DNA of 64,000 nucleotides from Rhizaria sp. SCN 62-66 (Eukaryota): positions 1 to 64,000 of the forward strand of contig MEDY01000032.1 in the NCBI GenBank assembly GCA_001724265.1, in the 5' to 3' direction. Position numbers and translations under genes: made by a program. Below are positions 1,053 to 64,000 of this stretch, piece by piece; the stretch's first letter is position 1, and each line of letters opens with the position of its first letter. A model generated the notes under the pieces. The model worked only from the letters and a program-made list of their open reading frames with translations, did not search any database and had not been told where the DNA came from.

Positions 1053-1226
1053 CACTCCCAAAATGCATTAGTGGTGTTCGGGATTCACTTCGAGCAAGGA
1101 TGAATCATTGACTCAAGCACTGTCATAACAACGTCATTTTGCAGCATCATTCAGGTTATGTGCTTAAAAAACGCATTGTGTTACAAATATTGTTTTTAAT
1201 TCATTGCCCTTCTTCGTTTGTCGCAG

Positions 1227-9156: not shown

Positions 9157-9187
<31 letters not shown>

Positions 9188-12100: not shown

Positions 12101-13514
12101 AGCCGATGCCACCGACAGCGCGACCGAACGCGGGGCCTAGCGACGGGGACGACGGAGCGTTGACGAAGACATTGCGACGTGCGAGGGCGCCGGAGCTGTT
12201 AAGCGTCTCGACGTCGGTGTCGGTACGCGGGTGGCCGGCGCCCATTGTCGCGGGGGCGTCGTAGGACGCATGCTTGTTGATGCGAAACTCAACGCCAACA
12301 GCAGCAGCCGCATTCGCAGCCGTGGTGCCAGCGTTGACGCCGTGGCTACTCCAGGCGCTGGTGATGCCCCCGGGGTTGTGTGTCGAATGATTAAGCTTCG
12401 ACCCAGCGCCGCGTTGGTCGTCACACTCGTCTTCATCGTCGTCGTTGTTGTTGTCGTCCTCGTAGTCGTCATCGTCGTTGTCGTTGACGGGGTAGATGCT
12501 CGCAGTATCTTCAGTCACCGAATAGTCGCCGTACGTGCCGCCGCCGGGCGGGCCGGTCATTGCGCTTGAATCGCCGCCGTCAAAGTTGAAACTCGCGAGA
12601 CCGCCGGCGCCGGCAGTAGCAGGTCGCTGCATGACACATGCGTTGTTGTTGATGTTGTAGTTGTCCAGAGAGTCGCCAGCGACGATTACACCCCCGACAC
12701 CCGCGGTTGTCGTGACGATGGCCGCGCTGGACGACAACTGCGCGGGCGTGTCAGCTGCCCCGGCCGAGCCAGCCAGCGAGAGCGTTCTGACCGCTGTGTA
12801 ATTCGTCGTCGGGGCCAGCTGAGACCCGAGCGACGGCGGCTGTGACGGCGCGATGGACTGTGAGTGCGAGTGGGTGTCCGACAGAGTCAACGAAGCGGGG
12901 TTCGCGTTCCGTGCTGCTGTTGCGAGGCCGCCGTTGTCGTTGGAGCTGAGTGCTAGAGACACAAACGGTGTCGGAGACACGTACCCGCTGGCAAATCTGG
13001 CCCCACCCACACCGCTGCCACTGATGTTGTTGTTGGCTTTGCTCATGAAGCCGCCACCGTAGACGGTCGTCGCAGAGGGCGTGATCGCAACCCGTGACGA
13101 GAGAGTCGTCTTGACGCCGGTCTGAGCACCGCCGGGGCCCTCACTCGCCGCATCACTATTGGAGACGTGGCACAAGCACGCGTGCGCGGCATAGCCCGAG
13201 AGACAGCCGGCGCCCGTCATCGCCGCACCGGTGGCGGACGAGGATGAAGAGGGCGACGCGGAAGAAAGAGGGCGCTTGAGAGCACGTGCGGAGCCGGTGA
13301 CAGAGCTGCTGCCCGTGGTCGGCGGAAGCGTCGTCGTTGCGAGACCGCTGTCGCCGCCGAGCTGAAAGTCACCGGGAGAGCCCGCGCCGACAACGCCGCT
13401 GTTTCGGTGTTGCGCACGGCAGAAGGCGTCGGACTGCGGAGAGGTGAACTCGGTTCGACTGCGCAGTGGTGCAGCAGGGTCTCGATCCCCCGGGTCGCGG
13501 CCCGAATGCGACAT
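6492..13514 (-). CDS. CDC25: Cdc25-type dual-specificity phosphatase (rhodanese fold), about 2340 aa, read through four in-frame TAG codons
   Basis: ORFs 11319-13514, 10476-11315 and 6492-10148 share one frame and are separated only by TAG at 11319-21, 10476-78, 10356-58 and 10161-63. Motifs: FLIVDMRFLYEFDNGHLVSAINI, active site VFHCEYSRLRGP (HCx5R at 10386-10409, absent from the ORF track) and LSFPEVVVMHGGYRAFY...LCAPQYYMEM. Ends in TAA. Confidence 0.88.
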
Positions 13515-16034: not shown

Positions 16035-16364
16035 ACGCTCCAAATGGGCTCAAGCCTCCTCTTTTTGTCTTGCGTACCATGAATGGCCGACTCGCAAATA
16101 TACTTTGAATTTGTTTATGTGATGATTTTTAAGCAATATATATTAGAACGTGTTTTCTATTTTGTTTTGCATGTGATTGATGATGGCCATGCACGTTGCT
16201 TGCGTTAATTAATACAAAGTACCTACGCATATCACTTGAAGGAAGCAGTGGCAGAGAGATGAAAAGAAAGCTAATGTATCAAAAGACGAAAATGAATCAT
16301 CGTCAAAACTAAATAGTTTAAAGTGTTCTAACGTAATGTAGGCGGTCGACTATTGCAATTGCTA

Positions 16365-19300
16365 TTATATTTGCTCCTGCTGTTGTTTCTCGTTTGCAGC
16401 AGCACCTGAATCCCCCGCAGCAGCAACCGCGGCAGCTGCCGCAGCAGCCGCTGCAGCCACTGCAGCCGCAGCCGCAGCGTCGGTAACCAACGTCGTTGCG
16501 GCCGGTGGGGGCGCCAACGACACGGGCCCAGTCCCGGGGGGCACAGAGGGCGCGGCAGACACTTGTGCTGCGCCGGGTGCCGCGGTCAAAGGCGACCCCT
16601 CGGGCGGCGCACTGTGTGCTGTGCCGCCAGAGAGTGCACTGGTAGGCGCAGCAGGTGATGTGCCGGGTGGAAGTGGCGCGGCGTTTGCCAGCGACGGGGC
16701 AGCGGTAGCTAATTGCGCAGTCCCAGCTAATTGCGCAGCGTGCGCAGCGCTCTGCAACTGTGCCGCCGCAGTCTGCATTTGCGTCGCGCTTGACAGCTGC
16801 GCAGCTGCACCAGGCAGCGCACTGGTCCCCGGCGGCAGCGTGGTCGCTCTCGGCAGCGCCGCGGAGCCGGACGGCAGCGGCGGTGCAGCGGCTGAGAGCA
16901 CGTAACCAGCCGGAGGGAGCCCGTGGCCGTGCCCGCCCTGTGGCGGCGGCGGGTGGCCGGGAGCGTGGCCGTAGTGATTCGGCGGCAGCGGCGGGTACAT
17001 CGGCAGCCCCAGCCCCGTCATCATCGTGATTGGAATCGGCAGCTGCCCGTATAAATGCGGCGGCGCGTGCGGCGGCCCGTGACCGTGGGCGTGACCGTGG
17101 GCGCTGGCGGCCGTGACCGGCAGCGCGTGCGTCGGCATTCCGGGCGGGAGCCGCATGGCGGCGTGTCCCTGCATCGTGTGTGCCGGTAACGCGTGCCCTT
17201 GCGCGTGCAGCGCGTGTCCCTGCATCGCCGCGGCGTGTCCCTGCATGTCGCGGAACAGCGCGTCGCCCATCCCCGTGGCTGACTGAGGGTGCGGCACTGG
17301 CGGCGGCGGCGGCGGCGCAGTGTGGGCCACGGGCGCGACAGAGCCGCCGCCAGCAGCACCGGCTCCTGACGCAGCGGCGGCGGCTGCGGCGGCCACGGCG
17401 GCGGCGGCGGCGGCGGCTGCCGCGGCGGACGACGGCATCCCCGAGTGCGTGTGCGCGTGTGCGTGAGGGTGCGCGTGGGCCGCCGCATGCACCGCCGCGT
17501 GCGCCGCGTGCGAGTGCATGTGCGAGGGATGCACCGGGAGCGGCATGAACTCGGCACCGGGAGCCATCGCCATGCCGCCCGCTGCTCCGGCCGCCGCAGC
17601 CGGCGCCGCAGCGGCGGGCGACCCAGCGCTGTGCGCGCCGTGGGCACCGGGGCGGGAGCTGTCAGCCGCTGCGGCGACACTCCGACCGGGCGCGGCGCCT
17701 GTGGCTGGCGCGGCCGCAGCAGCGGACGGCACAGCACCAGCCGAGGCCTTCGCGGCGGCGAGCGCTGCGGCTGCTGCTGCTGCTGCTGCGGCGGCGGCCG
17801 AGCCACCGCCGGAGACCTGCTGCGGCGCTGCGCCCGTGGCTGCTGCTGCGGCTGCAGCGGGGCTGACGCCCGTGAGGGCAGCGACAACATCCCTGTTGTA
17901 CGGATCGTTAAAAGCAATCGCTGCGGTGACGTCGTCGATGCCGAATGTGCGTGTGTGATACTTATCGAAACATGTGATGCAGAGCGGGACGTTGCAGGCC
18001 TTGCAGAGCAGTCGCGTAAGATACTTGCGTTTGTCATCTGGGGTCTTGAGCTTCTGGCAGTGCTTGCAGCGGCGAGATCCCTTTGGCAGCCGCACGGGCC
18101 AGTGCTGCGCGTGGGGCGGCACAACAGGGATATGGGCAACACGGTGTGCAGAGGACGCCGCAACAGACTCGTCGGCAGCGGCAGCGGCGGGCGCGACGGC
18201 GCGGCCGGACTCGTCGACGGTGACCCGGGCGTGCGGGGGAAATTCGAAGAACGAGTGCAGAATGCTCAACAGCGCCTCGCCAACTGGTGGCGACGACAAC
18301 ATTGATGACGACGATGATGACAACAAAGACGAACCCGTTGCCGCTGCAGAAGGTTGAGTCGCAGCTTGCGATGATGAGGACGCTGCAACAGCTGCTGCTG
18401 CGGCGGCGGCCGCGGCAGCCGCTGCTGCCGCAACGGAGGTCGGCCCACCCGAGGCGTTGCCACCGGGGGGCATCACCCCGTGCTGGTGGACGCTGCCGCC
18501 GACAGTCCGCGCCAGACCCGGGTGCAGCGCCAGCCCAAGCGCACCGGGACCGGCGGCGCTCGCGGTCGCGACGGTGCCAGTGCCGCCGCTACGGCTGAGG
18601 GACTCGAGAGGCGGGGGCAAATGGTCGACGTCAGAGCTGGTGCCGTAGCCGGCGGCAGAGCCGTTCGCAACGTCGTTGCCGTCGGTCATTGCAATCGCCC
18701 TGCCAGTGTGTCCATCTCTAACGCTGGTGGTGTTGTTGCTGTTGTTGTTGTTGTTGTTGTTGTTGATATTATTGTTGTCAGAGCCAACATGTTCGTGACC
18801 GTCGTCGCTGTCAGAAGCAGCGTCGGAATGCTCGTTATCATCGTCGTGGTCACTAGCATAGTCGCCTTCGTCAGCACCGTCATCGCTATTCATGCCGCTA
18901 TCATCATTTGAAGGGCGCCCAGTTCGTGAACGGCCGCCGACCGCGCCGTTGTGAGCACGCTTCAGTCCTCGACTCTTGTGACTCTGCTGATGTTGCTGTC
19001 GGGCAGCAGAGGCGGCATATCCCAAGTGTTCTGAACCGACACGATGCACCTGTTGCAGTTGAACTGGATGTTGATACTGGTATTGAATCTCATGCTGTTG
19101 ATACGGAGGTACTGCCATCTGTTGTCGCTGCACATCAGTCGTCGCCAGAGTCGGCATCAGCGCACCTTGCGTCGCAGTCGCCACACTCCTGAACGCAGCC
19201 GCGGCCGGACACGCGTTGGGGTCGTGGCCGATTTGACCACACAGGCGACACGCCTGCTGAAGCGCGTGGTTGCGGCCGGCAGCACTACCGTCATCACTTG

Positions 19301-20180
19301 CGTGTGCAGCAGCAGCAGCAGCAGCGCTAGCGTCGGTGCCAGAGCCAGGAGCATTGCTGGAAACGGTTGGGTCAGCGGTAGCTTGTGCGCTTGACGGCCC
19401 GCTCACAGATTCGCGAGCTGTCAAACCCTGCTTGCTGACTGAAGCAGAGCTAGTGCTGTTGTTTCCGACTGTGGCATCGTCGTTCGAGCCGCCACTGTCG
19501 CCAATGTGGGGTGCAGTTGCGCTCGCCCCGGCAGTTGCACCAGAATTGCCACTGGGAGCGGTTGCGCTGTTGCCTTCTGCGGCCGCTGACTTGGCTGCAT
19601 CAGCTGCAGAGTCTGCGGCCGCAATAGTCCCGGTCGAGGAGACGCCAGAGGGCACGGGCATGAGAGGCCCCATGGACGGGAAATGATGACCGTGTGCGCC
19701 AGAGGGCCAAAAGGCGGGCCCGTACGGAGGAACCGGGTGACTGTGACCGTGGGTGTGGCTGAGACCAGCAGCAGCAACAGCAGCAGCCGCGGCGGCGGCC
19801 GCAGCAGCGGCAGCGGCGGCGCCGGTGGGATTAGGATAAGGCAGCCCCGCCCCGGCCGCGGCTGCGGTGCCAGACGCGGCGGGCGGCGGCGGCAGCGGCA
19901 GGCTGTGGCTTTGACCGGTCTGGTGAGCGTGTAACTGAGAGTGTGAGAGCTGTGGCGGCTGCAAGTGACCGTGGGTGAGATGACTGTGTGCATGCGCTTG
20001 CTGCAGTGCCATCGGCGCGTTCTGATGACCGTGAGCAGCAGCAGCGGCAGCAGCGGTCGCAGCAGCAGCAGTGGCATTAGAGTGAACATGAGACGCCAGT
20101 GGATGCGATGCCAGTGTTGCACCAATACTAGCCTGGGCAGAAAGCGCTTGGTCGAGCTCAAGCTGTTGTTGTTGTTGTTG

Positions 20181-20219
<39 letters not shown>

Positions 20220-21227
20220 TTGTTGTTGTTGTGCCTCTGCGTGGCCGCTGACACTCTCGTTGCCGGCGATGGTGGTGTGGCTGCTACTGCCCTTGCCGTT
20301 ACTGCGAATGTACGCAGCGCCGTAGTGGGACAGATATCGCGGACATGTCTTGGAGTAGTGGCCCAGTCGGCCGCAGATGCGGCACTCGTGCGCGCGCCGG
20401 CCCGCGACCCCGGCACCGTTGGCGCCATCAGCGGCGCTCGAGTTCGAGGCAGCAGCACCCGAAGCAGCGCCAGGGCCGGTGCCGGAACCGCCGGAGTCAG
20501 GAAAGACAGCGGCGTCCGCGGCGGTGGAGTCAGGATCAGTGAACGCAGACGGTAGCGAAGGCGGGGCCAGCCGCGGCTCCACGTTGTTCGCAGAGGCCGC
20601 GGACGATGCGGCGGCGGCAGCAGCGGCGGCAAGCGCGGCAGCAGCAGTCGTTGCTGTGCTGTTTGCATCCGCGCCAACACTGCGGCTGGGGAAAGTGTCG
20701 GCTGATGCGTTGCGCTCGACAACACCGGCATTGGTGGTATCCCCGACCGCGGCAGCAATCGCAGCGGCCGCGGCAGCAACTGTCGCCGCCGAGGTAGGAG
20801 TAGAAGAAGACCCAGACGCGGGCGCATCAACCCCAATGCCGCTGCCCCCGCCAACCCCATCATCATCGCCGTCGTCATCATCGTCACTAGGATTGCCGCC
20901 GCCGTCCCCATTGCCGTTGCCTGCAGTGTCCGCGGCGTCCGCGGCGTCCGCGTCCGCGGCGTCCGCAGCGCCGGCGCGGCGCGGGACCCGCGGCAGCCCG
21001 GCGGCGCGCGCGGGGCAGGAACGCGCCGTGTGGCCGGCGCGCTGGCAGTGCGAGCAGCTGTACTTACCGCGCGGGCCGCGCCGCTTGATGGCGCGGCGCT
21101 GCTACGCCGGCAGCGGCACCACCGCGACGCCGCCACTGGCAGCGGCGGCGGGCACAGCAGCGCCGGGGGCGGGGACGAAGAGAGCGGCGGGGGCCGCGCC
21201 GGTGGGGTCTGTCATGGCGGAATACCC

Positions 21228-21258
<31 letters not shown>

Positions 21259-22139
21259 GTGGCGGCAAGGGTTGCGTGGTTCGCGGCGTTGAACGCGGCC
21301 AGCTGTTGCTGCTGTTGTTGCTGGTGTTGCATGTGTTGTTGTTGGAGGAGGTACAGCTGTTGCACAATACCGGCATTTGTGTGCGCACTAGTGTCAAGAC
21401 CAGAGCGAGATCCAACAGAAGTCCCTGTGACTACTGTGTTCAAATGTTCCGTTGCTGAGGCGGCACCCGTTGCTGCTGCGGCGGGAGCGGCTGTCGCTTT
21501 CTCAGACAGCGCAAGCCTGGTCTCCACAGCGGTGGGCGCGGCAGCAAGCGGCGGCAGCGTCGTTTGAGTAGGGGCAAACAGGCCCGGCACGCCGGGACCC
21601 TGTGCCAGACCCGGAGCGCTCGCCGACGGCGGCGCAGGGGCAGCACTCGGCTGGCGTTGCTCCGTCGAGTCTGAAGCGCGCACGGCAGCCGCAGCCGCAG
21701 CAGCAGCGGCGGCGGCGGCGGCGGCGGCGGCCGCTGCAGCTCCGGATTGCGCTGCAGAAACGTCTGAGACTGTGATCGGCACTGGGGCTGAGACAGGAAC
21801 GGACACGGAGGCCAGTGGGACCGAGGCGGAGTCAGGACGGTGGGAAATAGCCGAAGGTGGTGTCGGAGAGCCGGCTTGTGGGGGGATGGCGTGGGCGGTC
21901 AGAAAGCGGTCGACCTGAAAATGAGGGGCAATGCAAATGACATCATAGGGGCCAACGTGCCGAGACAGCGAGGAATCAGGGAGAAAGCAGGGATACGTGA
22001 AGGATTGAGATAGGAAAGGGCGAAATGCGTTGCGGAGAGCTGCTGAGTTGAAGAAAGGGGGACGTACAGTGAGTATGGGGCCAGGAGCAAGGGCATCAGT
22101 GCCGTGATAGGGCGCAATGCCGCTCGAAGCGTCTGCCAT
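16365..22139 (-). CDS. Low-complexity nucleic-acid-binding protein with three CCHC zinc knuckles and a piggyBac-type cysteine-rich domain, about 1924 aa, with one in-frame TAG at 21102-21104
   Basis: ATG at 22139 (MADASSG). The frame continues past the TAG into QRRAIKRRGPRGKYSCSHCQRAGHTARSC and on into ORF 16365-20582. Knuckles lie at 21015-21056, 20343-20384 and 19209-19250, and the Cys-rich motif at 17952-18104. Ends in TAA. Confidence 0.75.
20164..20232 (-). repeat. CAA/CAG trinucleotide tract encoding about 23 Gln
   Basis: (TTG)n(CTG)n(TTG)n on the plus strand. Confidence 0.9.
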
Positions 22140-23736
22140 CGCTGGCGGGTGGTATCTGGGGAAACCTGGAAGTCTGTGTGAGTGGTAAGAGTGACTGGCT
22201 GGAGGGGCAGATAGAGGGCAGGAAACAACAGAACAGAGGAGCATGTTTGAAACGTCGTAATTAGACGGGATAACACGTTAAGAAATATACAAGCGTGACG
22301 AGGTAATTATAAACAGTTACACGAACGCTCTAAGTCGGAAACAAGTTGATTCACGATTGCCTCGAGGCCCATTTTGAAATTAGAGAGAGCTTCGTTTGTG
22401 TCCCAACCAAATTAGAGTCCGCGCTGCGTCGTTGTTGGGGTTTTGGGGGCGCGGTTCTGAAAAAAAGCTCTGAAATTCAAAATCGAAACAGTCATCCTTG
22501 CGTATCTTATCGTCATAAAACCTGCGATGAGCTTGCACAGCACTTACCCGAGAAAGCTTGGAAATGCGATTTAAATATATGCGTACCTGTTTTTATCATT
22601 GTTTAGAGTCAAAGCGTTGCTTTCTCAAGTCGCCATCAAACCGGACGAAGCATCATTCGCGCGAGCATCACTTGTTGAGTGGACACTCTTCATTGAGCCA
22701 GTCTGCGATATAAAATCATGGCGTCATAGTGAGACAACAGTATGTCGTGTGGATCGATAAGACGATGCTCCTTTGTCACAGCTAATGTGTACTCATTTTC
22801 AACAGCCTTTAGTACGTTGCAATGACTAATAACTTCATCAACTGACTCTGCACACATCTCGTGATCGACAGCGCCATACGCAATATATTGTGAGGTAAAC
22901 CAATACATCTACAAGCATAACGTACTTCTATCAACTCTTAAGGCGTGAAAAATGCCATATGATGTTGAAATTCGTATCAAAGTCTGTTATGTCCATGAAC
23001 AGTGCTATCCTATTCATCGCAAACGTTGTGTAATTATGGCGTTGTATGCATGTTAATGGTTGCGAATGCATAGCATAATAAAATGTATCACATAGAATAC
23101 TCGTTTGAATGTCATGCCTAAAGACTGTACAGATGTATGCATAGGAAGACGGTGAAAGGCTTATAAATATCACATGACTATGTGCCGCGTCACTGGTGTG
23201 GTGAGAGCTCGTGGGTCTGCACTCTTTCTCTGCGTGGTCAAAAACGATTTGTGCATGATATCAAGTGATCGTCAAATCGTCTGCCGATGCGATTATTACA
23301 CGTACAATGCTCTTGTTGTTCCATTTCAAAGATTTTTTTGTCTGTACAAAGTCGGAATCATGTCTGAATTGTGTTAATGCTCTCACTCTACTTCGCAATG
23401 GTCGGCGTGGACAGCAACTGATCTCCTAGTCGGCCCTGGATACTGTCTAAGGTCATTCACATGTCAATATACCTCCTAACCAGTCGAACACGTGTTTTAC
23501 TTTTTGCGATCACTGTATTTTATCTCCCTAAGCATTCGCTCTGGTGAGTGTCAACACTCTTTTTCTCCGGTCTTGTTGTCAGTCATAACACCCATCCTCT
23601 CTCCTTGTCCCTCGCGGGACTCTCTGTCAAGCCACATCAGCCGGTTTCCGGCGCCCTCCGCCAAGCATATTGCGGCCCAACGGTACCTTTTTTCTTAATT
23701 GCGCGCCTTTGTACGCCGCTCTAAGCGCGTCCTAAC

Positions 23737-26700
23737 ATGGGAGCGTGTGTCTCGAAAGAGGCCAACAGCAACAGAGGCCCACACGCGCACCGCGGCGCTG
23801 CGGGGGGTTCAGGGCCAGATGGCGCGCGCGGCGAGCTCTCGCTAAGCAGCGCTGCGTCTCGCAACGGCGGTGCTTCGAACAGTGGTACGGTGCACTCTCT
23901 TTCTGCTCATATCGCCCCATTTTCGGTCTTAATTGTCTCCATCTCTAAATTCTCCGGGCTCGCTCATCATTCTCTGGTCATGACCCGCTACTGATCTACA
24001 CTCGTCTTTCATAGATGGCTCTGGCTTTGTGCCACGCCCCCACGCACTTGTGTTGTCCTCCGCGGTCGACACATGCCCCGACCTCGCAGTTGACACTGAC
24101 TCTGACGCTACTGCTGCCTCTGCGGCTTCGGCTCAAACTGCTGCTGCTGCTGCTACGGGCACTGATGACGGTGACAAGGCTCAGCATCCCACTCCCGCGC
24201 CCGCCCCGCCCCCCGCCGTGGAGTGCGCGGCCGCGACTCCCACGCTGCTCACACTCGGCGTAGGCCCAGCATCCGCGCTCGCTCTCGCGTTCCCGCCCAC
24301 CCAGCCGACCCTGCAGCCGCCGCTGCCGCCTCCGAGAGCCGCGGATCAGGCAGTGCAGTCGACGAGCGCGGCGCCGTCCGCTGCGACGACGACCGCAGCC
24401 GCGGGAGCCGCGTCGGGCGCGATGGCCGCGAGCCACAGCGGCGGCAGCAGCGCGGGCAGCAACGGCGGCGTCGGCAGTGGAATCAGCAGTGGCAGTGGCA
24501 GTGCTGAGATTGGCGAGAGCTTGGGCGAATTCCCGCTCTTTTCTAGCACCGGCGGCGGCATCCTTGCCAGCCCGGCTGACAGCTCCAGCGCCCTCATCAC
24601 CGGCAGCGGCGACGGCAGCGGCAGCGGCGGCGTCGGCGGCGGCTACATCAGCGCCGTCGACCTCAGCAATGTTGCACACGGCGGCATCGCGGGCGGCCTC
24701 GGTCCGCACACGCACGACTACAGCGGGCTGTACAGTGCGGCGGGCGGGTCGAGTTTGGCGGGCGCCGGCGTCGGCAGTTCGTTTGGCGGCAGCAGTTTGA
24801 CTGGAGCGTCGTCGTCCTCGTCGCTTCCTGCGACGGCGGCAACGGCGCCGCAAGGTCTGGGGCAGCAACTGCAGGTGACGCATCACCAGAACCCGCTCAT
24901 GTTGCTGGGCTCGGCGCCGACCAATCTCGCAGCAAGCACACACAACAACAACACCAACAACAATACTAGCACAGTAGCTGCTACTGCCACAGCGCCAGCA
25001 GCGGCGGCGGCAGCGTCGCCGTCCTCGACGCCGTCTGCGCGCGGCCTCCTCGTCGTTGGCACCGATCCCAGCGCGAGCACCGGGGCCGATACTGTGCTCG
25101 CCGTCACCGCGCCGCTCTCCGTTACCGCCGCCGGCTCTGCCGTGGTCGCGGGGACGGGCGCGGGGACGGGGATGTTCTTCCCGGTCAGACCCCCGCTCTC
25201 GGTCGCGCCGCTGTCGGTCAGTGCGTTTACTGTTGCGTCGCCCACCGCGGCCGCCGCCACTGCCGCCGCCACTGCCTCCAACGCCACGGCGTCGGGGGGC
25301 TCAACCGCGGTAGGTGTGAGTCCACTGAACACGTCCTTGGCCGCAGCCGCTGCAGCCGCCGTGGCCGCGCAGTCGCGGTCGAGCTCGCACTCGCTGCCGC
25401 AGTCGGACGCGCAGACGCCGCTGCAGCTCTCGCGGCAGCCTGACCTGGACGTCAGCCAGTCTCCTCTCGCCACGCTCGCGACTCCCCTGGTGGCCCCGGC
25501 GTCTGGCCCCAGACTGAGCGCGACCGCCACCGGCAGCTCCGCCGGCGCGAGCGCGGGGTTCTGGCTGCTCAACTCGCTGCGGTACGGGCACGATAGCGCG
25601 CGGACCGGCAGCCACACGCTCACGGGTAGCGCGCACAGCCACAGCGTCGGTAGTCACAGCGCGGGCGTCAGCGCGGGCGACCGCGCCGCGGGCAGCAGCG
25701 GGCGCGAGAACGAGCCCACGCACCTGAACATGCACGCGCTGACGCAGACCCCGACGCTAAAGTCCGGTGGCAGCGGCAGCTCTAGAGGCGGCGCGTTCGC
25801 GGCTTCGGCGGGGGCGCTCGGTGGGGCCGCCACGAGTGGCGACGCGGCGGTGAGTGGCGGAGGCGCCAGTGCTAGCGCCAACCCCAGCGCCGGCGATGGC
25901 GGCGCTGTCAGCGGTCGCGGCGGTGTGTTCGTCCTTGATAACACCACCACCAACGACGATAACGACGCGGCTGCGCTGTCGATGCGCACGCCGCCGCATG
26001 CGACTGCGTGGATCGATGTGAGTACTGTGTCAGAGCCACGGAGGGCGACAGCCGACGTGCCGCTCTCGTACGCGCAACAGCGTCAAAGCCAGCAGGATCA
26101 GCTGCTGCAGCTGTCGCTGCAGCAGGAGCAGCCGCAGCACCATGGCGAGCAGGAGACGCAGGCGCGGACGCAGACTCTAAGTAAGACGGTTAATCGACCC
26201 ACTCTTTACGCAGTGCAAAGCATGTTTGCTGAGACACTTGCCCAACAGCAACAACAACAGAAACAAAAACAACAACAACAAGAACAACAGAAACAAGACC
26301 TGCCCTGGCAGCAACAGCAGCAGCAGCAGCAGCAGCAGCAACATCAGCAGCAGCAGCCGCCGCAGCAGCAGAAAGCGCAGCCGCAGCCGAAAGACCGCGT
26401 TGATCTGCTGCGGGCCGAGTCCACCGACCGCGAGCTTGGTCAATCCTCCTCCGCAGCGGCACTGCACCCGCCGGGCCTCGCTCCTGCGCGCGCGTTCACA
26501 CTCCCGCACTCGCAGTCTCACGCGTCGCACGCGCTTCTCGAGTCGCACCGGGTCTCGGCGACCTCCGCGCCGCTCTCCGCCACGCCCTCCGGTCTGCGGC
26601 TGATGCTGCCCACGGCGTCGCCGTCGCCCGTCGCCGGCACGGCCACGGGCGGCGGACTCGATGGCAGCCGCGGCGGCGCCATGCCGTGCCTCAACGCGGG

Positions 26701-29700
26701 CTCGCCGGCGTCTTCCACCAGCACACCGACGGCGACGGCCGCGGTGGCGCAGGCGGGCCCGCTATCGCCCGCTGCGGGCGCTGCGAGACGCGCGCACTTG
26801 TCGGGGCCCGATACGATGCCCGGCGTCGAGCGCAGGGATGCTGAAGGTGGTGGCCAATCAAAGGGGCCCGACGTGGCGTCCTCGCAACTCACGTTTGTGC
26901 AGCAGCTGTTCGAGCAGCAGCAAGTCCAGCAGCAACAGCAGCTGTTTGGTGTCAGATCGCTGCAGACCCCGACGGGGCCTGTGACGGTCAGAGTCCCCCC
27001 TGTCAATTCTGCGTTGATGGCCTTCACCGACCAGTCCAACAACATGCAGACGCATGCTGAGGCGCAACCGCCCTCGCCACAACAACTACAGAGTCATCAG
27101 GCTGCGTATGCGAACGGGTATGCGCCCGCTTTCAGTGGCGACCTGTCCGTGCCCAAGGCCGTCGCCCTGATGCAGCAGTTGACGCAACTGCTCAGTGCGA
27201 TGCAGCAGCGGCAGCGCGAGCTCTCTCAGGGCGGTGCCGCCATCAGCAACAGCAACGGCGCAACTGGTGCGAGCAGCAAGCATAACAACGGCAACGGCGG
27301 ACGCAACAGCGTGAGCAGCCAGAGCCAGATGCGTCACAGCGGCAGCGGTAACGCCAACGCCAACGGCAACGGACACAGTCGCCAGACCCAGCAGCAGGGC
27401 TCTGGGCCGGCGTCGGGCGGCTCTCAGGCCACTCACGGTCAGTCTTTCGCCGCTACTGCTAACGGCGGCGGTTGGAACGTGAGCCAACTGGGCCGGCGCT
27501 CGCCCACAGTCACCACAGGCGGGACGCCGCTGTCGGTGCCTGACGACCACGTGATTGACACGGTCATGGTGAACGGCGAGCCAGTGTCGTTTATTCGCCG
27601 GGTGACGCCGCGTGACGCGCCCTTCACGCCCACCTCTGCGACGGGCAACGGCAATGCGATGCAGACCGGCAACGGCAGCCTTTACGACAACATCGACAAC
27701 ACTAACAACAATAACCGCGGCAACAGCCCGAACGACGGGATGATGGGCGCCAACGTCGTCCCTGTCGTTGGCCCCGGCGCCGGCGGGCCCCCTGGGGTCG
27801 GGTCTCTGCATGTCAACGTCAACGCCAGCAGTGTTGGCAGCAGCGGAAGAAGTATTGCCGCCGTCAGTGTCGGCAGTGGGTTCAATGAAAGCGGCCCTGT
27901 CGTCGGTGGCACTGGGAGTATCACAGTCAGTGGCGGCAGTCAGCAGCTGATGTTGACGCCGACGCAGTTCACGCCAGCGCTCACGATCACTTCCTCCGTG
28001 ATTACAAATGGCACGGCCAGCGGCACTGGTGCTACGCCGCCGGACGCGACTGGGTCTTACAGCAGCCCCGGCACTTCCGGTGGCACGTCGGTCCCCGTGC
28101 AAAGCGCCGCCGCCGCGAGTGGCGGCCAGTGGGGCGCGCAACACACAGGCGCGACTCCGCGGCCGCCGCCCGGGCTCCCCGGAGGCGGCGCGCCGCGGCC
28201 GCTCAACGTGCGCCCCCCGCCGGTCCCCGCGGCCGCCGGCGGCGGAAACGGCTCCGGCTCGACGCCTCCACTGGCGCCCGCAGGACCCTTGTCGCCCACA
28301 TCGCTCAACAGGACATCCATCGCGTCTCCTATGGCAAACAACAACGTCAACAGTCACACCGGCTTGCACGCGAACGTGAACATCAACAACCAGAGCAACC
28401 TCAGCAACGGTGCCACCACCGCCGTTGCGATGGCTGCGACCGCGGGCAGTGTGTCGACGTCGCAGGGCTCGTTCCGCTCCTCTCTGCGCGCCACAGGCCG
28501 CTCGGCTACCGGCGGCTCCGGGCTACCCGCGCTCAGCGCAACCGGCTCTTCGCACAGCATCGACGGGAGCTCGAGCTCCGGTGCCGGCGGTGTCGGCGGC
28601 GCGCCGCAGGACGCTGCCGTGCTGAACGCGGCGACGGCGCACGCGCTGATCCAGGTCATGGGCGGCGCGGCACTGACGCCGGAGCTGCTGAGCCAGCTGG
28701 CATGGCTTGTTGAGACCCTGGCGCCCAGCGGTCAAGCGCAGGGGCAGACACAGCAAACACTCGCGTTGCAACAGATTGCGGGCAACCCGGTTTCGGTTGT
28801 GAGCTCCAACGGCAGCAGCTCCGCAGCGGGGCTGACCGCTGGTGCGACCAACGCCGGCGGAAATCTCCAGTTGTTCCCATCGCAGTCGTATTCGTCATCG
28901 TATAGCGCCAGCGCGTCGTCCGCGCTTGGCAACGCCGCGGCCGCGCTCGCTGCACATGCCGCCGGCTCAAGCTCTGGCGCTGGCACAGGCTCTGGCACTG
29001 GACCAGCTCATGGCACTGGCGCTGGGCCAGGCTCCGGTTCGGGCTCCGGCTCGGGCTTCGGTGCTGGAAGTGCGGCCTCGTTTGTCGACGTTTTAGCTAT
29101 GGGTAGAGGACCGTTGACACACAACCGCAGCGCTTCCATCAGCAACATTAGCCTCGGTGGCTACCAACAACAACAACAGCAACATCAGCAACAGTTTGCT
29201 CCGGGGCAGCCACAGCACCAACAGAGACCGCACGGCGGTCCCGCGTCTGTGACCGGCCCGAGCCTCAACACGAGCCCAAACGTGCCCGCAAGCACGATCA
29301 GCGGCCCGCGCGCCGCGGTCGGCGTCGCAGACACTCCCACCCCGCCGTCCGCGGGCGGCGCTTCCGCCGGGGCGGCGCTGGAGCATATGCTTTCGCAGGG
29401 CGACCAGCAGTGGGCGGGGCGCGCGATCAGCCCGCCGCAGGCGCTGCAGCTGCAGCTGCCCGCCACCCTGTCTAGTTACGCCACGGGCTTGCGCGTCACG
29501 CCCCCAAAGTCACCGTCGCAGCCTCAGTCTCAGCCGCAGCAGCAGTTGTCGCAGACGCAGGTGCTGAACTCGGCGCTCCTAGCGCTGCAGCAGCAAATCC
29601 GACAAAATGCGGATGCGATTCAGACTGCATTGGCGCAGGCTGCGATGCAAAGCAACGCTCCCAGTTCGATGACGCTGCAGCAGCAGTACCAGCATTAGCA

Positions 29701-32700
29701 GGAGTATCTCGCCTTTCAGCAGCAGCAGCAGCAGATGCAGCAGATGATGACAATGCAGCTGCCGCAACAGCCGCGGCATATCGCAACGCGGTCGCCACAG
29801 TCGTCGCCGCCCGCGACGGACTCCGACACGAGCGTCGTGTCCTCGCGACCCGGCTTCACGGCGAGCGCGGTGATCTCCGTGCCGCCACTCAACAGCTCGC
29901 TCAGCGGCGGCAACGATGCCTCAGCACAGGCCCGCACTGTCCCGTCCACGCTGCGCACGGTCGCCGCAGCCGTGCCCAGCGGCGGCGCCCACTCGGGCGC
30001 GGGTCCCGGCGTCGGCCGCGCGACCTCACTGCAGACGGCGGCGACGACAATGCAGCAAACCGGTGGCGGGTTGAAGGCGCCGCCTGCGTTCGTGTTTGAC
30101 GTGCCACCGGTCACCCCCGCGGCCCAGCCGCTGTACGGCGCCCCGGGGACTTCCTACGGTCAGCCCTATGGCAACACGACGCAGCCGCAGATGCAGTCGC
30201 AGCCGGTCAACGGTTGGTACACCGCGCCGCCCATGGCTGCTATCACGCCGCAGCAGCAGTACGTGCCGACGATGCAGCCCGCGAACGCGAGCGGACAGTT
30301 AATGATTACGCTCCCGGGCACGCCTTCGCACGCACAAGGTTTCCCGCTGCCGTCGCCACTGAGCACCACTCCCAACCCCATGATGCAGCAGCAGTACATG
30401 GGGCAGCAGCAGCTGCAACAGCCGCAGCTGCCGATGCAGCAGCCACCGCAGCCCCAGCAGCAGTCGCCTGCGCCCATGAGCCCCAGTGCGCGCCTCGCGC
30501 CGGCGATGTCGATGGCGGAGGCGCAACTGCGGCAGCAGCTGATGTTCGTCAAGCAGCAGCAACAGCAGCTTTTGCTTGCGCACGCCCTCAACCTCAACGC
30601 TGGTCAGCAACAGGTGACGATGCAGCCGCCGGCGGGGCTGATGCTCACGCACGTCAACAGCGTCGGTCCCGGCGGCGCCATAGGCTCGCTTCTGAGTCCG
30701 ACGGCGGGCGGCCTCGCCGTCGCCGACCCGCCGCCTGTGTGGCCGTACCCTGGCACAATGCCCGCCACCGGTGCAGCGCAGGGCACACGCTCACAGTTGA
30801 GCGCGGCTAACGACGCCAGCGCGTTCGCGAACCCCGCAATGCAGACGGTCAGCTTCTCGACCGAAGGCAGTCTCGCGGCATCTGCGATCGAGGAGCAGCT
30901 GCGCGCTGTGGCCGCACTCGCAGTGCCCGTTCTGTCGCGCACCAGCACCGGGGTCACCGGGATGGGTCAGGGCAACACGCAGTCTGACTACACGAACACC
31001 GCTGGGCTCACGCCTGTGTATTCGCAACAGCAGCAACAGCAGCAACAGCAGCTGATGGTTCTGAGTCCGACGAACCTTGGAGTCACGGGCCAGCAGTCAC
31101 TTGGACCGCACCACATGATGTTGCATCATATGCCGCACGCGCAGCAGCACTACACGCAACCGCAACTGCAGCAACTGTCGCTGCAACAGCAGATGCAGCA
31201 GCAGGTTGGTGGCGTGTACTACCCCGCCGGCGCGAGCGTCACGCCGCGCGCAGTGCCCATGCAGTATGGCGGCGACGGCTCCGCGACCGTCGGCATCGTG
31301 CCGCCGCCGTCGCCGGGCGCCGGGCTTGCGCTGAGCTACGCGCCGTCGACCATCTCGCTGCTTGCGCCGACGCAGCTTGCGCCGACGCAGCTTGCGCCGC
31401 TGCAGATGGCCTCGCCGGCGGCGCTGCAAGATGTCGTGCTGCCGTTTCCGTCGCCCGCGGCCCTGACCATGGCCAGCAACGGCCCCGTGACGGCACAAGT
31501 CGTGCCAGTCATGTCTCCGCATGTTGCGTTCGGCCCCGGCGCCGCCGTCGTCGGCCCCGGTGGCAGCGGCAGCATCAGCGGCGCGACCGGCAGTTGCAGC
31601 GACGCTGACGACGTCGACGACACGTTGCTGGCGGGCCGGTACCGTCTGCTTAGCGCGCTGGGCCGCGGGTCCTACGGGCTGGTGACGCGCGCGCTCGACC
31701 TGTACACGGGCCGCATCTGCGTCATCAAGTCTATCAAGCGACCAGTGCTCGGTCTGCGCTCCGGTAGCGTGCTCTGGGAGCGGCTCGCGCGCGCGCACCA
31801 CATCGTGCGCGGCCACTTGGGCACCGCTGCGGCCGCCGCGGTCGCACCAGGACAGCCCGTCGTCGCGCTCCGCTCGCTGCGCGCGCTGATGCTGCAGGCG
31901 TGGCTCGTTCGCGACACGTCCGCGAACGGCGCTCTCGACAGCGCCCGCGGCAACGGCGAGGCGCGCTGCTCCCCCACCCCTGGCGGTGACGGCAACGGCG
32001 CGGGCGGCGCCGAAAACTCTCTTTCGCGAAGCCGCGGCGTAGGCTCCGGTTCAAGCGACGCGTCATCGTGCGCGGCGCTGCGCGTGTGGCGCGACCTCGC
32101 GCAGGGCGCCGCCGCGGGCCTTAGCGCCGGTGGCATGACAGCGCCCAACTCGTGGTTCAGCGAGAGTGAGATCCTGCAGTGCCTCGGCCGCGCGCCGCTG
32201 CCGCTTTCCGTGGGCGCGCGCGCTGACGAGACCGCTGCCGGTGACGCGACGGGCGCAGTGCTGTGGCCCGTCGGCGCGCACCCCGGTGTCGTGAAGCTGC
32301 TGGACGTGGTCGAGACGTGCCACTGCCGCACGCGCTACGCAGAGGCCGTCGCCGCGCGCTCCGCCGCGCTCGCCGCCGCCACGAACACCGCGGTCGACGC
32401 CAGCGAGCGGGTGAGCGCGGTGGCCAAGATCCTGGCGCTACCAGTGACCGTGGACGGACACCTGGCGCGCTGCGAGCTTGGGCTCGGCGCCGGGCTTGCG
32501 GACACGCCCTCGGACGCCGACACGAGCCACACGACCACGCCTCTCGGCTCGCCCACCGCCAGTGCTGGCGCGGCCGCCAATGCCGGCGCGGGCGTGATTG
32601 CCGGCGGCTGGGGCGCGGGGCTGGGCGCCGGCGGGCTCGGTGCCGGCCGCGTCGTCGGCAACAACGTCACGCACCTGGTGCTCGAGTACCTCCCCGGCGG

Positions 32701-35700
32701 CCCCGTCGTGCCCGCCACGACTGACGCGACCTTCACCGGCGGCGCCGACCCGTGGACGGAGCACTGGGGCCGCGTGGAGAGCTACATGCGCCGCATGGGC
32801 ACGGTGGTGGCTTACTACCGCCGTCGCCGGCTGCGCAAAGAGCGGCAGCTGCTCGAGGGCAACCCGTTCGAGTACAGTGGCGCCGATGACGGCCGCGCCA
32901 GCCCCAGCACTATGACACAGCCTGCGGCCGAGCGCCACTACCCGTGGTGCTCGATGGACCCCGTCTCTGTCGCGCTCAGCAACGACGCGCAACAGCAACA
33001 GCAACAACAGCAACAACAGCAACAGTCCGGAGACGGCACCAATGCCGCTCCTTCGAGTGCGTCGCCCGCAGGTCTGCCGATGCACTTGGTCTGGCTCTTT
33101 GCTCGCGACCTCGTGTCATCGCTTGACTTCATCCACCGCCGCGGTTTTGCACACCGCGACGTCAAGCCCGAGAACCTGCTCCTGGACTGGGGCGACACCG
33201 CGCCAGACCTCTACGCCGACGAAGCCTGTGGCCACAACGACGCTCCACTTGCCTGCGAGTCGCATGAGCTGACGCCCGAGCAGCGCGCACACGTGTGCCG
33301 CTCCTGCCTCTGGCGCCGGCCGCGCTGCGTGCTCGCCGACTTCGGTGCCGCGTGTGCAGTGCGGCAGTCGTCGTCGGGCCGCCAGCGCAGGCTGGGCGAG
33401 GCCGCCGCACTGTATGCGTCGCGTGTGCGCGCGATCACGCTGCACACGCGCGCGGTCGAGGCGCGCGTGTGGCGGCGCAACGTGGGGCTCACGCGCGCGT
33501 CGCAGAACGCATCGGTAGCGCTTGCGCATGGGGCCGACCCTGTCGCGGCCGAGGCGCAGCGCCGCCAGCAGCGCGCGCAACGTCGCGTGCAGGTGCGTGC
33601 GGTGGTCGTCGAGCGCAAGCGGCGCTGTCAGGAGGCCGCGACGCGGCTGCGGCTGACGCGCGAGCGGCAGCGCGAGCGCGACCGCGCGCGCAGGGGCGCG
33701 GGCCAGCGCCAGACGCGCGCGGGCGCAGTCGCCTCCGCCGTCGCGGTGGGCATGCTCGCGGCCACCGCGGCGGTCGACGTGGACCGCGTGGACACACTCT
33801 CGCCGCGCACCCGCGGCGTGGTCGGCGCCGCGGCCAGCCCCGCACTGGCGACTGCGACGCCGCCTCTTGTTGTGGCAACCGCGTCGCTGGGGCCCGCACC
33901 CCTCGCGCGCGAGCGCAAGTCTTTTATCGCGGCCGAGGGCGCCGCCGGCTTGAATACCGGCGTCGTGACTGTCGGCGTCGTGACTCCCCGGCGGCGCAAG
34001 CAGGCGCGTGCGTTCGACTCGCGCTCGCGCAACCCGTCACGGTCGCAGATGGAGAAAGTGCTCAACATCACGGGTACCCTGCCCTTCATGCCGCCCGAGG
34101 TGTTGCGCGGCGGCGACGCGGCGTCCGAGGCCGGCGACGGCGACGATGACGACGCTGCGGCGCTCACCGCGACGCGCGCCGGCGCGCGCCGGCCCCCCGC
34201 GCGGCCCAGCGCCGTCAGCCGCCCCGGTGCGGCGCACGGCGGCGCGGCGTCGTCGCGTGTGAGCCGCGCGCTGAGCACGGCGATGAGCCGCATTACTGCC
34301 AGCAAGGGCGTTGTGTGGCGTCGCGCGGACGCCTGGGCCGCCGGGCTCACTATCCACTCGATGCTGCACGGCAAGCTGCCCTGGCGCTCGCTGCAGCCCG
34401 TGCGCAACGGCGGCGCCACGCAGTCGGTGGACGACGACTTTGACGACGAAGAGGACGACGACGCCAACGGCTTCGGCAACGGTAGCCGCCGCGGTCTGTG
34501 CTCCCCCACCGGTGTGCACCCGGCCGCCAACAGCAGGCTCATCTCCGCCGCGACGAGCAGCCATAGCACGGCCAGCGGCGGCAGCGGTGTGAGCGGCGGC
34601 AGTGGGCTCAGCGGCGTCAGTGCCGGTAGCGGCGCGAGCAGCGGCGCCGCCAGCGCGGTAATCGCGGCAACGATGCTATCTCCCGGCACGCCCCCCGTGG
34701 GTCGAAGAGGCATCAACTCACGCCCGCTGCGCGCGCCGCACCCGCCCGCGCTGGCGCCACCCGCGTCGCAACCCCCGCGGCCGAGCCCGCGTCCGCCCAC
34801 CTCCGGCTCCTCCGCCGCCGCCGCCGCCGCGGGCGCGCTGTCCCCGTCGCCGCCCGCGCCCCCCGCGCAGCCAGCGCCGCCCGCGACGGGCGTGGCGGCG
34901 CTGCTTGCCGAGGTGTGCGACGCGACGGGCCCCGTGCGCGTGGCGCAGCGCCAGCGGCAGCGGCAGAGCGCGGCGTGGTGCGCGATGCTGCCGCGCTTCG
35001 CCAGCCTCACCAAGATGGACAGCAACAACGGCGGCAGCAGCGGTGCCGGTGCGGCGTGTGGTAGCAACAGCAACAACAACAAGTCCGCTGCTGCTGCTGC
35101 TGTCGCCAACGGGGCGCCGTGTTCTTCGTCGTCGTCATCGTCGTCCGCGGCTGCGGGCGCCAACAGCTGCGGCAACGGGTCTTGCTGTGCCGGCGCTGGC
35201 GCTGACTTGAACAGCACCCCCGCCAACGGTGACGCTGCCCCCGGCGCCGACGCGAACGCTGGCTCCGGCGCGAGCGCGAGCGCCAACGCGGGCGCGAACG
35301 CAGGCATCCCGCCGCGCGTGCGCGTGCCGACCGGTCTGCTCGAGCTCCTCGACGGGCTGCTCGCGCGGTCACCGCGCCAGCGCCTGTCGCTGCGCGGTGC
35401 AGGGCTTGACCGCTGGCTGACGCTCAACGGCCAGTGGCCGCTGCACGTGGAGCCCTCGCAGCGCGCCGTGGCTTGGCTGGCGGAGACCATGGACGGCCAC
35501 TGGTGGGGGCTCGGCGACGGCTGGGAGTTCGACCTCGGCGGCGACTACGACGACAGCGACAACGACGACGGCGACAATGACGACGTCGGCGCCGGCGCGA
35601 ACCACAACCGCCGCGCTGCGCGCGCCACGGCCCGCGGCGCGGGCGGCTGCGGCTGCGGCGACGCCTCGACTGCGGACGCCGGGTACGTCTCGAACAGTGA

Positions 35701-35985
35701 CGATAGCGAATGCGAGGTCGCGGCCTGCGTCGCGAGCGCCGACCTGGACACCGACTGGCTCAGCTCGAACGACGTCGACGCCGACGCCGACGCCGCGGAG
35801 CCCACGATTGCGCGCACGCGCGCCGAGACCGAGGGCAATGCGTCTCTGCGCTTGCGTGTGGGTGGCGAGCCCAGCGCCGCCACAACGGGGGCACTCGTGC
35901 CCGGCAAGGTCTCGCGCGCCGCGACAGTCGTCGTCACGGGCGGGCCGGCCACCGGCGAGACGCTGAGCCCGCGCCTCCACCGGTT

Positions 35986-36021
<36 letters not shown>

Positions 36022-36439
36022 GGCTGGGGGTGGCGCGGCCGGCGTGCGAGGCGCGCGGCCGCTGCCGGACAGCGCGAACTCGAGCTCGGGAGTGGCCACC
36101 GCGGGTGGCGCCGCTGCGGGACGGGGCCTGAGAGCCAGCGGCGGCAGCGGCGGGCCCGTGCCAGGCCACGGGCTCGCGCCCGGCGTAGGGCTGGGTCTGC
36201 GCGCTGTGTCCGCGGCCGCAGGCGGGAACTGGGACCGCGATAACCTAAGCAGCAGCGCTGAAGAGAGCGGTTGGGAGAGTGACGAAGGCTTCGGCGACTT
36301 GAACGAGGGCGTTGAAGAGGAGGAGCCCGAGGAAGACGGTGACGGCGACGGCGAGGCCGACGGGGCTGCTGCAAGCGACGACGAACGCGACGGCAGTGAC
36401 TGGAGCGAAGAGCACCAAAAGAGTGACCAGGACCTCTGA
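23737..36439 (+). CDS. Giant Ser/Thr protein kinase, CaMKK/SnAK-like, with predicted N-myristoylation and palmitoylation; exons 23737-23884 and 24015-36439; about 4190 aa; in-frame TAG at 29696-29698
   Basis: Starts MGACVSK. ORFs 24029-29698 and 29735-36439 are in frame and joined by TAG CAG GAG TAT CTC GCC TTT (CAG)6. Kinase motifs: LGRGSYGLV, VIKSI, HPGVVKLLDVV, LVLEYLPGGPV, HRDVKPENLL, LADFG, GTLPFMPPE, DAWAAG, GKLPW. Ends TGA TAA. Confidence 0.8.
23885..24014 (+). other. Spliceosomal intron of the kinase gene (130 nt)
   Basis: GTACGG...CATAG, pyrimidine-rich. Removal puts the MGACVSK exon in frame with the long ORF. Confidence 0.8.
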
Positions 36440-43668: not shown

Positions 43669-44772
43669 TTAGAGGTCGTACTGGCGGCGCGTCTTGCCGG
43701 TGGTGTTGTTCTTGGCCCACTCGTACTCGCCCATCTGCTTGTCGAAGGTGCCGTGTTGAAGCCACATGAGCTTCATGGTGAACTGCGGACCAATCTCCTG
43801 GATGCGAGCGCGTACCTTGGCGTCGTTGATGATCATCTCGCCCGAGTACAGCTTCGGCGCGTCGCGCGTGGCGTCGCGGTACTTCTGCGAGCCCTTCTTG
43901 CCGAGCAGCATGCGGCGCTCGACGGCCTTGGCCTTGTCGCGGATGGCTTTCTCCTCGGCCGTCTCGCCCTCGAGCCGCCCGTCGGCGTGGCTGAGGCGCT
44001 CGAACACGTACCGGTGGTGACGGAAGAAGACGTAGTCGCGCTGGTTGTGGAAGGTCATGACGCGGCGGCCGCGGAAGAAGGGCTCGGGGTGGAAGAGCGC
44101 GCCGAGGATGCGGCCAACGCGGAGGCCCATGCGTGTGGTGAAGCGGTTCAGGATGACCTCGGGCTTGGCGACGAAGTTGATGTCGCCGGCGTCGGGGATC
44201 TCGCGGTTGAGCTTGACGTTGGTGAGCTTGAAGTAGCACGTGGGACCTTCGGGCAGGTGCACGACGGTGAGTCCGTTGATCTTCTTGTTGTCCTCGTTGA
44301 AGATGAGCAGGTCTGTAAAGCCGTCGTCGGAGCAGGTCTTGACCATGTCCTTCACCTTGCGGCGGTTGCGCTCGTGGTAGATCGAGTTGGGGAACACGTA
44401 TAGCAGGTCCTTCATGAAGTCCTTGAGGCGCGTCGACGCGCGCAGGCACGACGTGATGCACAGCTTCGGCGTCGCCTCGCCGCGGTAGTAGGAGGCGTAC
44501 TCGTCCATGGCGTCCTCACCAGCGACTTCCTCGTCGCCGAGCTGCACCTCGGTCTCCTCCGCCACGCGCATGCTCTCGATCGTGCGTGGCTTGGCGACAG
44601 GGGGCGCCTCGTCGCCGAGGATCTCGCGCTCGCGGAGGCGCTTCTTGCGCTCGAGAGCCTTGACGGCTTTCTTGACGGCGTCCTGCTTCTCGTGCATCTG
44701 GCGACGCTTCATCGCGTTGCCGATCTTGTTGACGTCCATCGCCAGAAGGCGCTCCTGGGCCTCGGACGGCAT
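43669..44772 (-). CDS. RPF1: Ribosome production factor 1 (Brix domain), 367 aa
   Basis: PRTIESMR, PKLCITS, HLPEGPTCYFKL, PEVILNRFTTRMGLRVGR, RRVMTFHNQRDYVFFRHHRY and IQEIGPQFTMKL...GTFD...GEYEW. Start placed at MPSEAQ, where coding-like composition begins. Ends in TAA. Confidence 0.92.
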   Translation of the reverse strand: MPSEAQERLLAMDVNKIGNAMKRRQMHEKQDAVKKAVKALERKKRLREREILGDEAPPVAKPRTIESMRVAEETEVQLGDEEVAGEDAMDEYASYYRGEATPKLCITSCLRASTRLKDFMKDLLYVFPNSIYHERNRRKVKDMVKTCSDDGFTDLLIFNEDNKKINGLTVVHLPEGPTCYFKLTNVKLNREIPDAGDINFVAKPEVILNRFTTRMGLRVGRILGALFHPEPFFRGRRVMTFHNQRDYVFFRHHRYVFERLSHADGRLEGETAEEKAIRDKAKAVERRMLLGKKGSQKYRDATRDAPKLYSGEMIINDAKVRARIQEIGPQFTMKLMWLQHGTFDKQMGEYEWAKNNTTGKTRRQYDL

Positions 44773-58175: not shown

Positions 58176-58219
<44 letters not shown>

Positions 58220-63998: not shown

Positions 63999-64000
63999 GC

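Follow-up and report, generated by a model that had tools for sequence, protein, structure and literature searches.

How is a TAG codon to be read when it stands in the middle of an otherwise open frame of 4190 codons? The question is raised by a 64,000-nucleotide (nt) stretch of DNA from Rhizaria sp. SCN 62-66 (GenBank assembly GCA_001724265.1, contig MEDY01000032.1, positions 1 to 64,000 of the forward strand; "the window" below), in which a TAG at 29696-29698 (+) falls within the gene for a putative Ser/Thr protein kinase. A preliminary description of the window, made from the letters alone, held that this TAG lies in a polyglutamine tract, fuses two giant reading frames into one kinase, and points to glutamine. 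The computational analysis described here finds six in-frame TAGs in the window and no gene that ends in one. That the organism uses a non-standard code in which UAG is fully sense appears quite likely, and if leaky reading of UAG is included, some departure from the standard reading is very likely indeed. The inserted residue, with full and leaky reading counted together, is likely Gln. The complete proposal, a nuclear code that reads UAG as Gln and stops only at UAA and UGA, is the answer we favor, with a confidence somewhat above even.

In-frame TAG codons in the window

The 11 genes of the window belong to an uncultured, single-celled eukaryote; they have few introns, and their coding sequence is rich in GC (GC content at third codon positions, GC3, about 0.8). 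The six in-frame TAGs lie in three of them: four in a Cdc25-like phosphatase gene, one in a zinc-knuckle gene, and one in the kinase gene. In the 16,003 codons of ten coding stretches, these six are joined by no in-frame TAA or TGA and by no frameshift. The Rab24-like gene, the B9 gene, and exon 1 of the kinase gene, all outside that count, have no in-frame TAG. How do the genes end? In this small sample, seven of the 11 end in TAA, four in TGA, and none in TAG. The TAGs thus exist, sit in coding sequence, avoid splice sites, and never serve as gene ends here.

The letters that follow each TAG look like coding sequence. Codon usage over the next 40 codons scores positive at all six (0.08-0.71) and negative past all ten true gene ends that were scored (-0.60 to -1.05). 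Past the last TAG of its gene, the frame stays open for another 1222-2246 codons, an outcome to which chance assigns 1e-12 to 1e-18. The base directly after the codon (+4) is C at five of the six TAGs (background 25%, p 0.005) and at none of the ten scored true stops. Introns, of which the window has five, all start with GTACG, measure 116-194 nt, and are AT-rich (GC 0.36-0.48); their first positions are 3780, 4181, 15202, and 23885 (+) and 58646 (-).

Are the TAGs truly present in the genome? Part of the region was recovered in 11 of the 12 sequencing runs listed, from seven studies, and the runs that hold it better have bioreactor, wastewater, activated sludge, and microbial fuel cell on record as habitats. 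Contigs of four of these 12 runs were compared letter by letter with the window. Five of the six TAGs are spanned unchanged by contigs of runs X3 and X6, which come from two further studies; among the contigs listed, none of X4 or X6 spans the TAG at 29696, and none at all spans the one at 10163. Since an X3 contig, assembled in an independent study, covers 28213-30089 with 0 letter differences, the TAG at 29696 is no assembly error. A contig of X5, a polyA RNA library, spans 29142-29727, again with 0 differences, though it reaches only 29 nt beyond the TAG (2 nt under the 31-nt bridging rule that was applied) and the library may contain DNA. In two intergenic bins covered by X3 and X4, the depth of X5 is zero.

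The Cdc25-like gene

The strongest evidence comes not from the polyglutamine site but from a TAG in the gene at 6492..13514 (-), whose predicted product is a Cdc25-like phosphatase. The gene has 2340 codons, ends in TAA, and contains TAGs with first bases at 11321, 10478, 10358, and 10163. Both halves of its catalytic domain match human CDC25A/B/C (E 2e-22), with the rhodanese fold and its His-Cys-X5-Arg loop. The TAG at 10478 falls between the two halves. The TAG at 10356..10358 (-) falls within the domain itself, 9 codons past the last Arg of the intact Cys-X5-Arg loop and opposite a Glu of human CDC25B/C; the same letters are found in X3. The alignment to human CDC25C crosses this codon without a gap (E 1.1e-15). 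Because a gap-free alignment leaves an intron no room, the TAG is very probably read through rather than spliced out.

The rhodanese domain is also interrupted by a low-complexity insert of about 170-190 amino acids (aa). A profile search with a piece of this protein found no close relative, other matches reaching at most 54%. Cdc25 fragments of the kind that standard gene callers leave already stand in protein collections.

The kinase gene

What, then, of the codon that raised the question? The letters given in the preliminary description are present as quoted: CTG CAG CAG CAG TAC CAG CAT before the TAG, and CAG GAG TAT CTC GCC TTT (CAG)6 ATG CAG CAG after it. As codon 1944 of the kinase gene, with C at +4, the TAG joins two stop-to-stop frames that share a phase, 23984-29698 (1904 codons) and 29699-36439 (2246 codons). 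With stops as frequent as they are off frame, 2246 more open codons would arise by chance with a probability of ~1e-18. "Polyglutamine tract" overstates the setting, which is Gln-rich (19 of the 60 flanking codons) but not pure, the codon 5' of the TAG being His. The absence of an AT-rich spacer is borne out: in 90-nt bins from 29336 to 30055, GC stays at 0.57-0.80 and GC3 at 0.67-0.93, with no drop. The nine intergenic spacers run to 330-3060 nt with a GC of 0.37-0.55; the largest turned out to contain a small gene. The gene does have one intron, which lies far upstream.

That intron (23885..24014 (+), 130 nt, GTACGG...CATAG, GC 0.48) restores the frame between exon 1 (23737..23884 (+), 148 nt), whose putative start gives the sequence MGACVSK, and exon 2 (24015..36439 (+)), which is open but for the one TAG and ends in TGA at 36437-36439. 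With the TAG as sense, the coding sequence measures 12,573 nt, or 4190 aa. We take MGACVSK, with Gly2, Cys4, and Ser6, to be a predicted myristoylation/palmitoylation signal, by which the protein would be acylated. The kinase domain (31661..35383 (+); Pfam Pkinase, 2.8e-12) is interrupted by long low-complexity inserts, yet its motifs come in order: the Gly loop, Lys, HRD, DFG, an APE-like end of the activation segment, and subdomains IX and XI. The stretch of the N-lobe alone had no match in PDB and no kinase match in Pfam. The best PDB match is Chk1 (2.7e-06), followed by BRSK2 and MNK; this ranking does not back a CaMKK/SAK1-like label that motifs had suggested. The gene closes on a tandem stop, TGA TAA, at 36437-36442 (+).

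Does the TAG part the N terminus from the kinase, as was argued? It does precede the domain. All seven kinase motifs, however, lie 3' of it; with the ATG at 29735 as a start, a complete kinase would fit into the downstream frame by itself. Fusion into one protein of about 4190 aa is nonetheless supported, mainly from outside the quoted site, which is itself weaker than was claimed: read-through at 29696 gains its support from the four TAGs in the Cdc25-like gene, the one in the zinc-knuckle gene, and the absence of TAG from all 11 gene ends. The product is probably a single 4190-aa kinase, N-acylated and with a very long disordered N-terminal part, within which the TAG would be one rare Gln codon.

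Which residue does UAG specify?

Of the six TAGs, the one at 10358 can be placed in an alignment. The Cdc25 matches numbered 150, one of them a fragment from the organism itself (P0125), and 148 of the remaining 149 homologues, which are mutually related, could be aligned at this column. The residues there are N (33), K (28), E (23), S (18), Q (14), R (12), A (9), D (4), T (4), V (2), and G (1), with no L, Y, or W. For the other five sites, a context model trained with one gene left out at a time favors Gln over Glu (9- to 13-fold), Lys (2- to 8-fold), Tyr (2- to 5-fold), and Ser (3- to 87-fold). The window has 288 contexts about as Gln-rich as that of the kinase site; their central residue is Gln 169 times and Leu 27 times, and under a stricter match Gln accounts for 50 of 118 and Leu for 13. 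The base after the codon can be used as well. C follows 53% of Gln codons, so that five of six TAGs are unexceptional (p 0.14), and 31% of Leu codons, for which five of six would be unusual (p 0.012; p 0.07 for CTG). When context and the Cdc25 column are put together, the evidence runs 34- to 86-fold against Leu.

Gln is preferred because it is the only candidate that no test disfavors. The claim that the codon points to Gln is probably right, Gln being the likeliest residue; Leu is disfavored by one Cdc25 column only. How might UAG have come to mean Gln? By analogy with the model described for Iotanema spirale (PMC5304391), UAG would be decoded by a tRNA-Gln(CUA), whose anticodon is one change from CUG, and eRF1 would no longer stop at UAG but would keep UAA and UGA; the window contains neither of these two genes.

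Weighing the alternatives

A number of points weigh against UAG as Gln. The codon is remarkably rare, six in 16,003 codons and less than 1% of Gln codons, compared with 18.5-31.8% in published reassigned codes (PMC11687900); its rare use may mean that the code change is recent or incomplete. Random nonsense changes in these genes would give TAG in 65-67% of cases, so that six TAGs out of six have a p of about 0.08 when taken alone. Scans of the window for tRNAs and for Rfam families found no match, so the expected tRNA is missing from it. There are six codons in all, one at an alignable position, and no TAG was seen at an invariant Gln. That one column is polar and variable, Gln is a minority in it (14 of 148), and its constraint may be relaxed, given the loss of two neighboring, near-invariant Arg residues (147 and 145 of the 148 homologues), which are Ser and Lys here. 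By context, Gln and Leu fare alike (likelihood ratio 0.7-1.7), and the 34- to 86-fold figure rests on the penalty for 0 of 148 in the column, for which a limit of ln -3 was set by hand. The training stretches of the codon-usage score include the regions that it tests. The polyglutamine site alone is no proof of fusion, because the downstream frame contains all seven catalytic motifs, and a kinase orthologue was not found in a weak, crowded search of proteins 1053-3005 aa long. Finally, the trees that place the organism are quick, single-gene trees without bootstrap, of 52 rows for the CHD helicase domain and 78 rows for RPF1, and the only published rhizarian change of nuclear code that was found reads UAG as Leu (PMC5304391).

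Could UAG be read only some of the time? In such leaky reading, eRF1 would still partly see UAG, and the near-cognate tRNA-Gln(CUG), helped by the +4 C and a Gln-rich mRNA, would compete with it; UAG would no longer be used to end genes but be tolerated in a small number of regulatory genes of low dosage, with mostly Gln inserted. The rarity of TAG and the difference in +4 C between TAGs and true stops fit this account, and four of the six TAGs crowd into the Cdc25-like gene (p 0.005 for this gene, or 0.055 when any gene counts), with all three carriers being regulatory. The 2-8% Gln insertion described for yeast at stops in Gln-rich mRNAs (PMC13192750) could serve the kinase. Cdc25, however, must pass three TAGs to complete its catalytic domain, none in a Gln-rich setting (48 CAG and 13 CAA in 2340 codons), and yeast-like rates would by our estimate leave about 1e-4 of the product or less. 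Moreover, the kinase site is His-TAG-Gln and not QXQ, and the excess of C at +4 is what Gln codons show anyway. Read-through of a programmed kind would face the further difficulty that the six sites share no fold (z-scores -2.0 to +0.5), have no Rfam match, and differ in all six 3' hexamers beyond the +4 C. Leaky reading is the main rival, though a rather unlikely one. About as unlikely is a part-way reassignment, in which UAG would have gone from gene ends, perhaps clade-wide, and would have re-entered coding sequence sparsely, with inefficient decoding as Gln. The codons regained, almost all of them followed by C, would be those in the zinc-knuckle gene, the kinase gene, and the gene for the cell-cycle phosphatase. 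They might be decoded with no special CUA tRNA, and this could keep the dosage of the three regulators in check.

If UAG is fully sense, might it specify something other than Gln? Leu is what UAG encodes in the sainouroid rhizarian of Lygus hesperus, and the two changes could be a single event. It is also the second commonest center in Gln-rich contexts and equals Gln in the context of the five sites, but its absence from 148 homologues at the Cdc25 column (one column only) and the C that follows five of six TAGs speak against it, and we consider it rather improbable. Lys and Glu suit the Cdc25 column at least as well as Gln does, and UAG as Glu is known in a ciliate (PMC11687900); context, on the other hand, counts against Glu about 10-fold, against Ser 3- to 87-fold, and against Lys 2- to 8-fold, and Tyr is absent from the column, so that any of these four is a poor candidate. 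A standard code, with nonsense alleles in decaying genes or a separate kinase gene starting at ATG 29735, could appeal to TAG as the expected majority of random nonsense, to the position of the entire kinase 3' of the TAG, and to the missing Arg residues of Cdc25. It would have to accommodate six stops without a frameshift, long open frames, codon bias that is kept, the same alleles in other studies, a Cdc25 catalytic loop that is intact, and the lack of anything like a spacer ahead of 29735, and it seems very improbable. Splicing or RNA editing to CAG is unlikely, and we rank it lowest. There are 121 formal GT..AG pairs that could excise the TAG at 29696 in frame, but the nearest GTACG donor lies 583-3628 nt upstream of the six TAGs, the Cdc25 alignment has no room for an intron, and the unchanged X5 contig gives a weak hint against both processes (its short side is 29 nt, and the library may contain DNA).

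Relation to known codes

How does UAG as Gln in the window compare with codes already described? In Iotanema spirale (Fornicata), 204 UAGs in 126 genes are reported, with Gln in 22 of 28 hyperconserved columns (PMC5304391). As in that account, internal UAG would be read as Gln, UAA is the main stop, UGA the second, and no gene ends in UAG; unlike in Iotanema, the lineage is an unrelated one, the TAGs number six, and none stands at an invariant column. Ciliates with UAG as Gln and UAA and UGA as stops include Hartmannula sinica, Trochilia petrani, and Protocruzia tuzeti (PMC11687900). For Hartmannula and Trochilia, the same source gives UAG as 18.5-31.8% of Gln codons, with 78-84% of genes carrying one, in contrast to less than 1% of Gln codons and three of 11 genes here, in a genome with a GC3 of about 0.8.

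The rhizarian from Lygus hesperus (Sainouroidea) reads UAG as Leu, with support at 82 of 86 hyperconserved positions (PMC5304391). It resembles the present case, as described there, in being a rhizarian nucleus with UAG decoupled from UAA and with gene classes uneven in UAG, and differs in its residue, since the single alignable column here has no Leu in 148 homologues. Yeast read-through in Gln contexts (PMC13192750) likewise involves a stop in a Gln-rich mRNA, a +4 C, and insertion of Gln, but amounts in that report to a few percent, in engineered or mutant alleles of a standard-code cell, whereas here four TAGs stand in a Gln-poor Cdc25 gene and TAG ends are lacking. Giant-virus genomes that are best annotated with single-stop reassignments have been reported as well (PMC13524828). 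No rhizarian with UAG as Gln was found in the full-text literature searched, mostly open-access and without the supplements of surveys, where a published mention is possible.

The window thus very probably represents a non-standard code, most likely with UAG as Gln: a known type of code in a new lineage, used unusually sparsely. A change in UAG with UAA kept as a stop is rare: the accounts at hand name several ciliates, a single fornicate, a genus of green algae, and a single rhizarian (Leu). If the residue is Gln, this would be an independent event in Rhizaria, where the one case found in print is Leu; if it is Leu, the known rhizarian code would also occur in an organism that lives free in sludge. 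With the codon used so little, the organism is a candidate for comparing "codon capture" with the "ambiguous intermediate," and the data, a 121-kb contig and several sludge metagenomes, are already public. There is a practical side too, as standard gene callers split these genes into pieces.

The organism and its relatives

What kind of organism is it? Two genes served as phylogenetic markers, a CHD-type SNF2 remodeller at 55298..64000 (-) (two exons, 58647-63998 and 55298-58489; ends in TAA) and the RPF1 (Brix) gene at 43669..44772 (-) (no TAG; ends in TAA). In the CHD tree, the window falls in a clade of 24 rows (Shimodaira-Hasegawa-like approximate likelihood ratio test [SH-aLRT], 99) whose named members are all rhizarian: Gymnochlora, Amorphochlora, Mikrocytos, and Nonionella. 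A weaker subclade of 12 rows (86) joins it with the two chlorarachniophytes among them. In the RPF1 tree, it belongs to a clade of 34 rows (98) with Amorphochlora as the sole named member and Spongospora outside, and within this to a long-branched group of nine metagenomic proteins (100), of which the eight that were aligned share an insert of about 55 aa. By these markers, the organism is probably a member of Rhizaria, likely of Cercozoa. No sainouroid appeared among the named matches of either marker. A B9-C2 ciliary transition-zone gene (3770-4628 (+)), which has two introns (3780-3895 and 4181-4374) and is fragmented beyond the open reading frame list, suggests a flagellated cell.

A close sister is known from one protein, P0275, which is 90% identical in the helicase region. 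The P0275 version of the remodeller lacks the intron and is called as one frame of 2839 aa. A scan of metagenome contigs with RPF1 found at least five loci of relatives (L001-L005, from four organisms or fewer); the window organism and the close sister represented by P0275 were absent among the RPF1 matches listed. A search with the CHD helicase region among prokaryote genomes and viral contigs found no more DNA of the lineage. Do the relatives share the code? Loci L001-L004 have no internal TAG in 5562 codons (p 0.12 at the density of the window) and no TAG at nine clear gene ends, an absence that does not decide their code. These ends do not include two L004 frames (3-1238 and the Ubc12 gene), since each runs to a TAG that is possibly intronic. 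The same letters follow the TAG in both (1197-1210 (+) and about 5900-5910 (-)) and resemble an intron branch site. RPF1 adjoins a gene transcribed divergently from it and without a Pfam match both in the window (43669-49969) and in L004 (7015-11086), although the RPF1 identity between the two organisms is only 46%.

Other features of the window

The zinc-knuckle low-complexity gene occupies 16365..22244 (-) and ends in TAA. An X6 contig spans its single in-frame TAG, whose first base is 21104 and which precedes a CCHC knuckle by 16 codons. At the gene end stands a tandem TAA TAG (16362-16367 (-)). The CHD-type remodeller, with no TAG in its 2847 codons, carries an NSD-like PHD finger. At 15371-15660, two contigs of X4 differ from the Rab24-like gene at many sites, mostly third positions, which suggests related species or paralogues in one sludge sample.

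Matches in the ESM Atlas were limited to generic Brix and kinase clusters, and repeat searches of the window returned only low-complexity repeats of the trinucleotide type. Most genes are single giant exons, enlarged by repeats of Ala, Gly, Ser, and Gln. By eye, and without a count, the short peptide Ala-Thr-Gly-Ala-Ala was seen repeatedly in low-complexity regions of P0275 and of several window proteins unrelated to one another.

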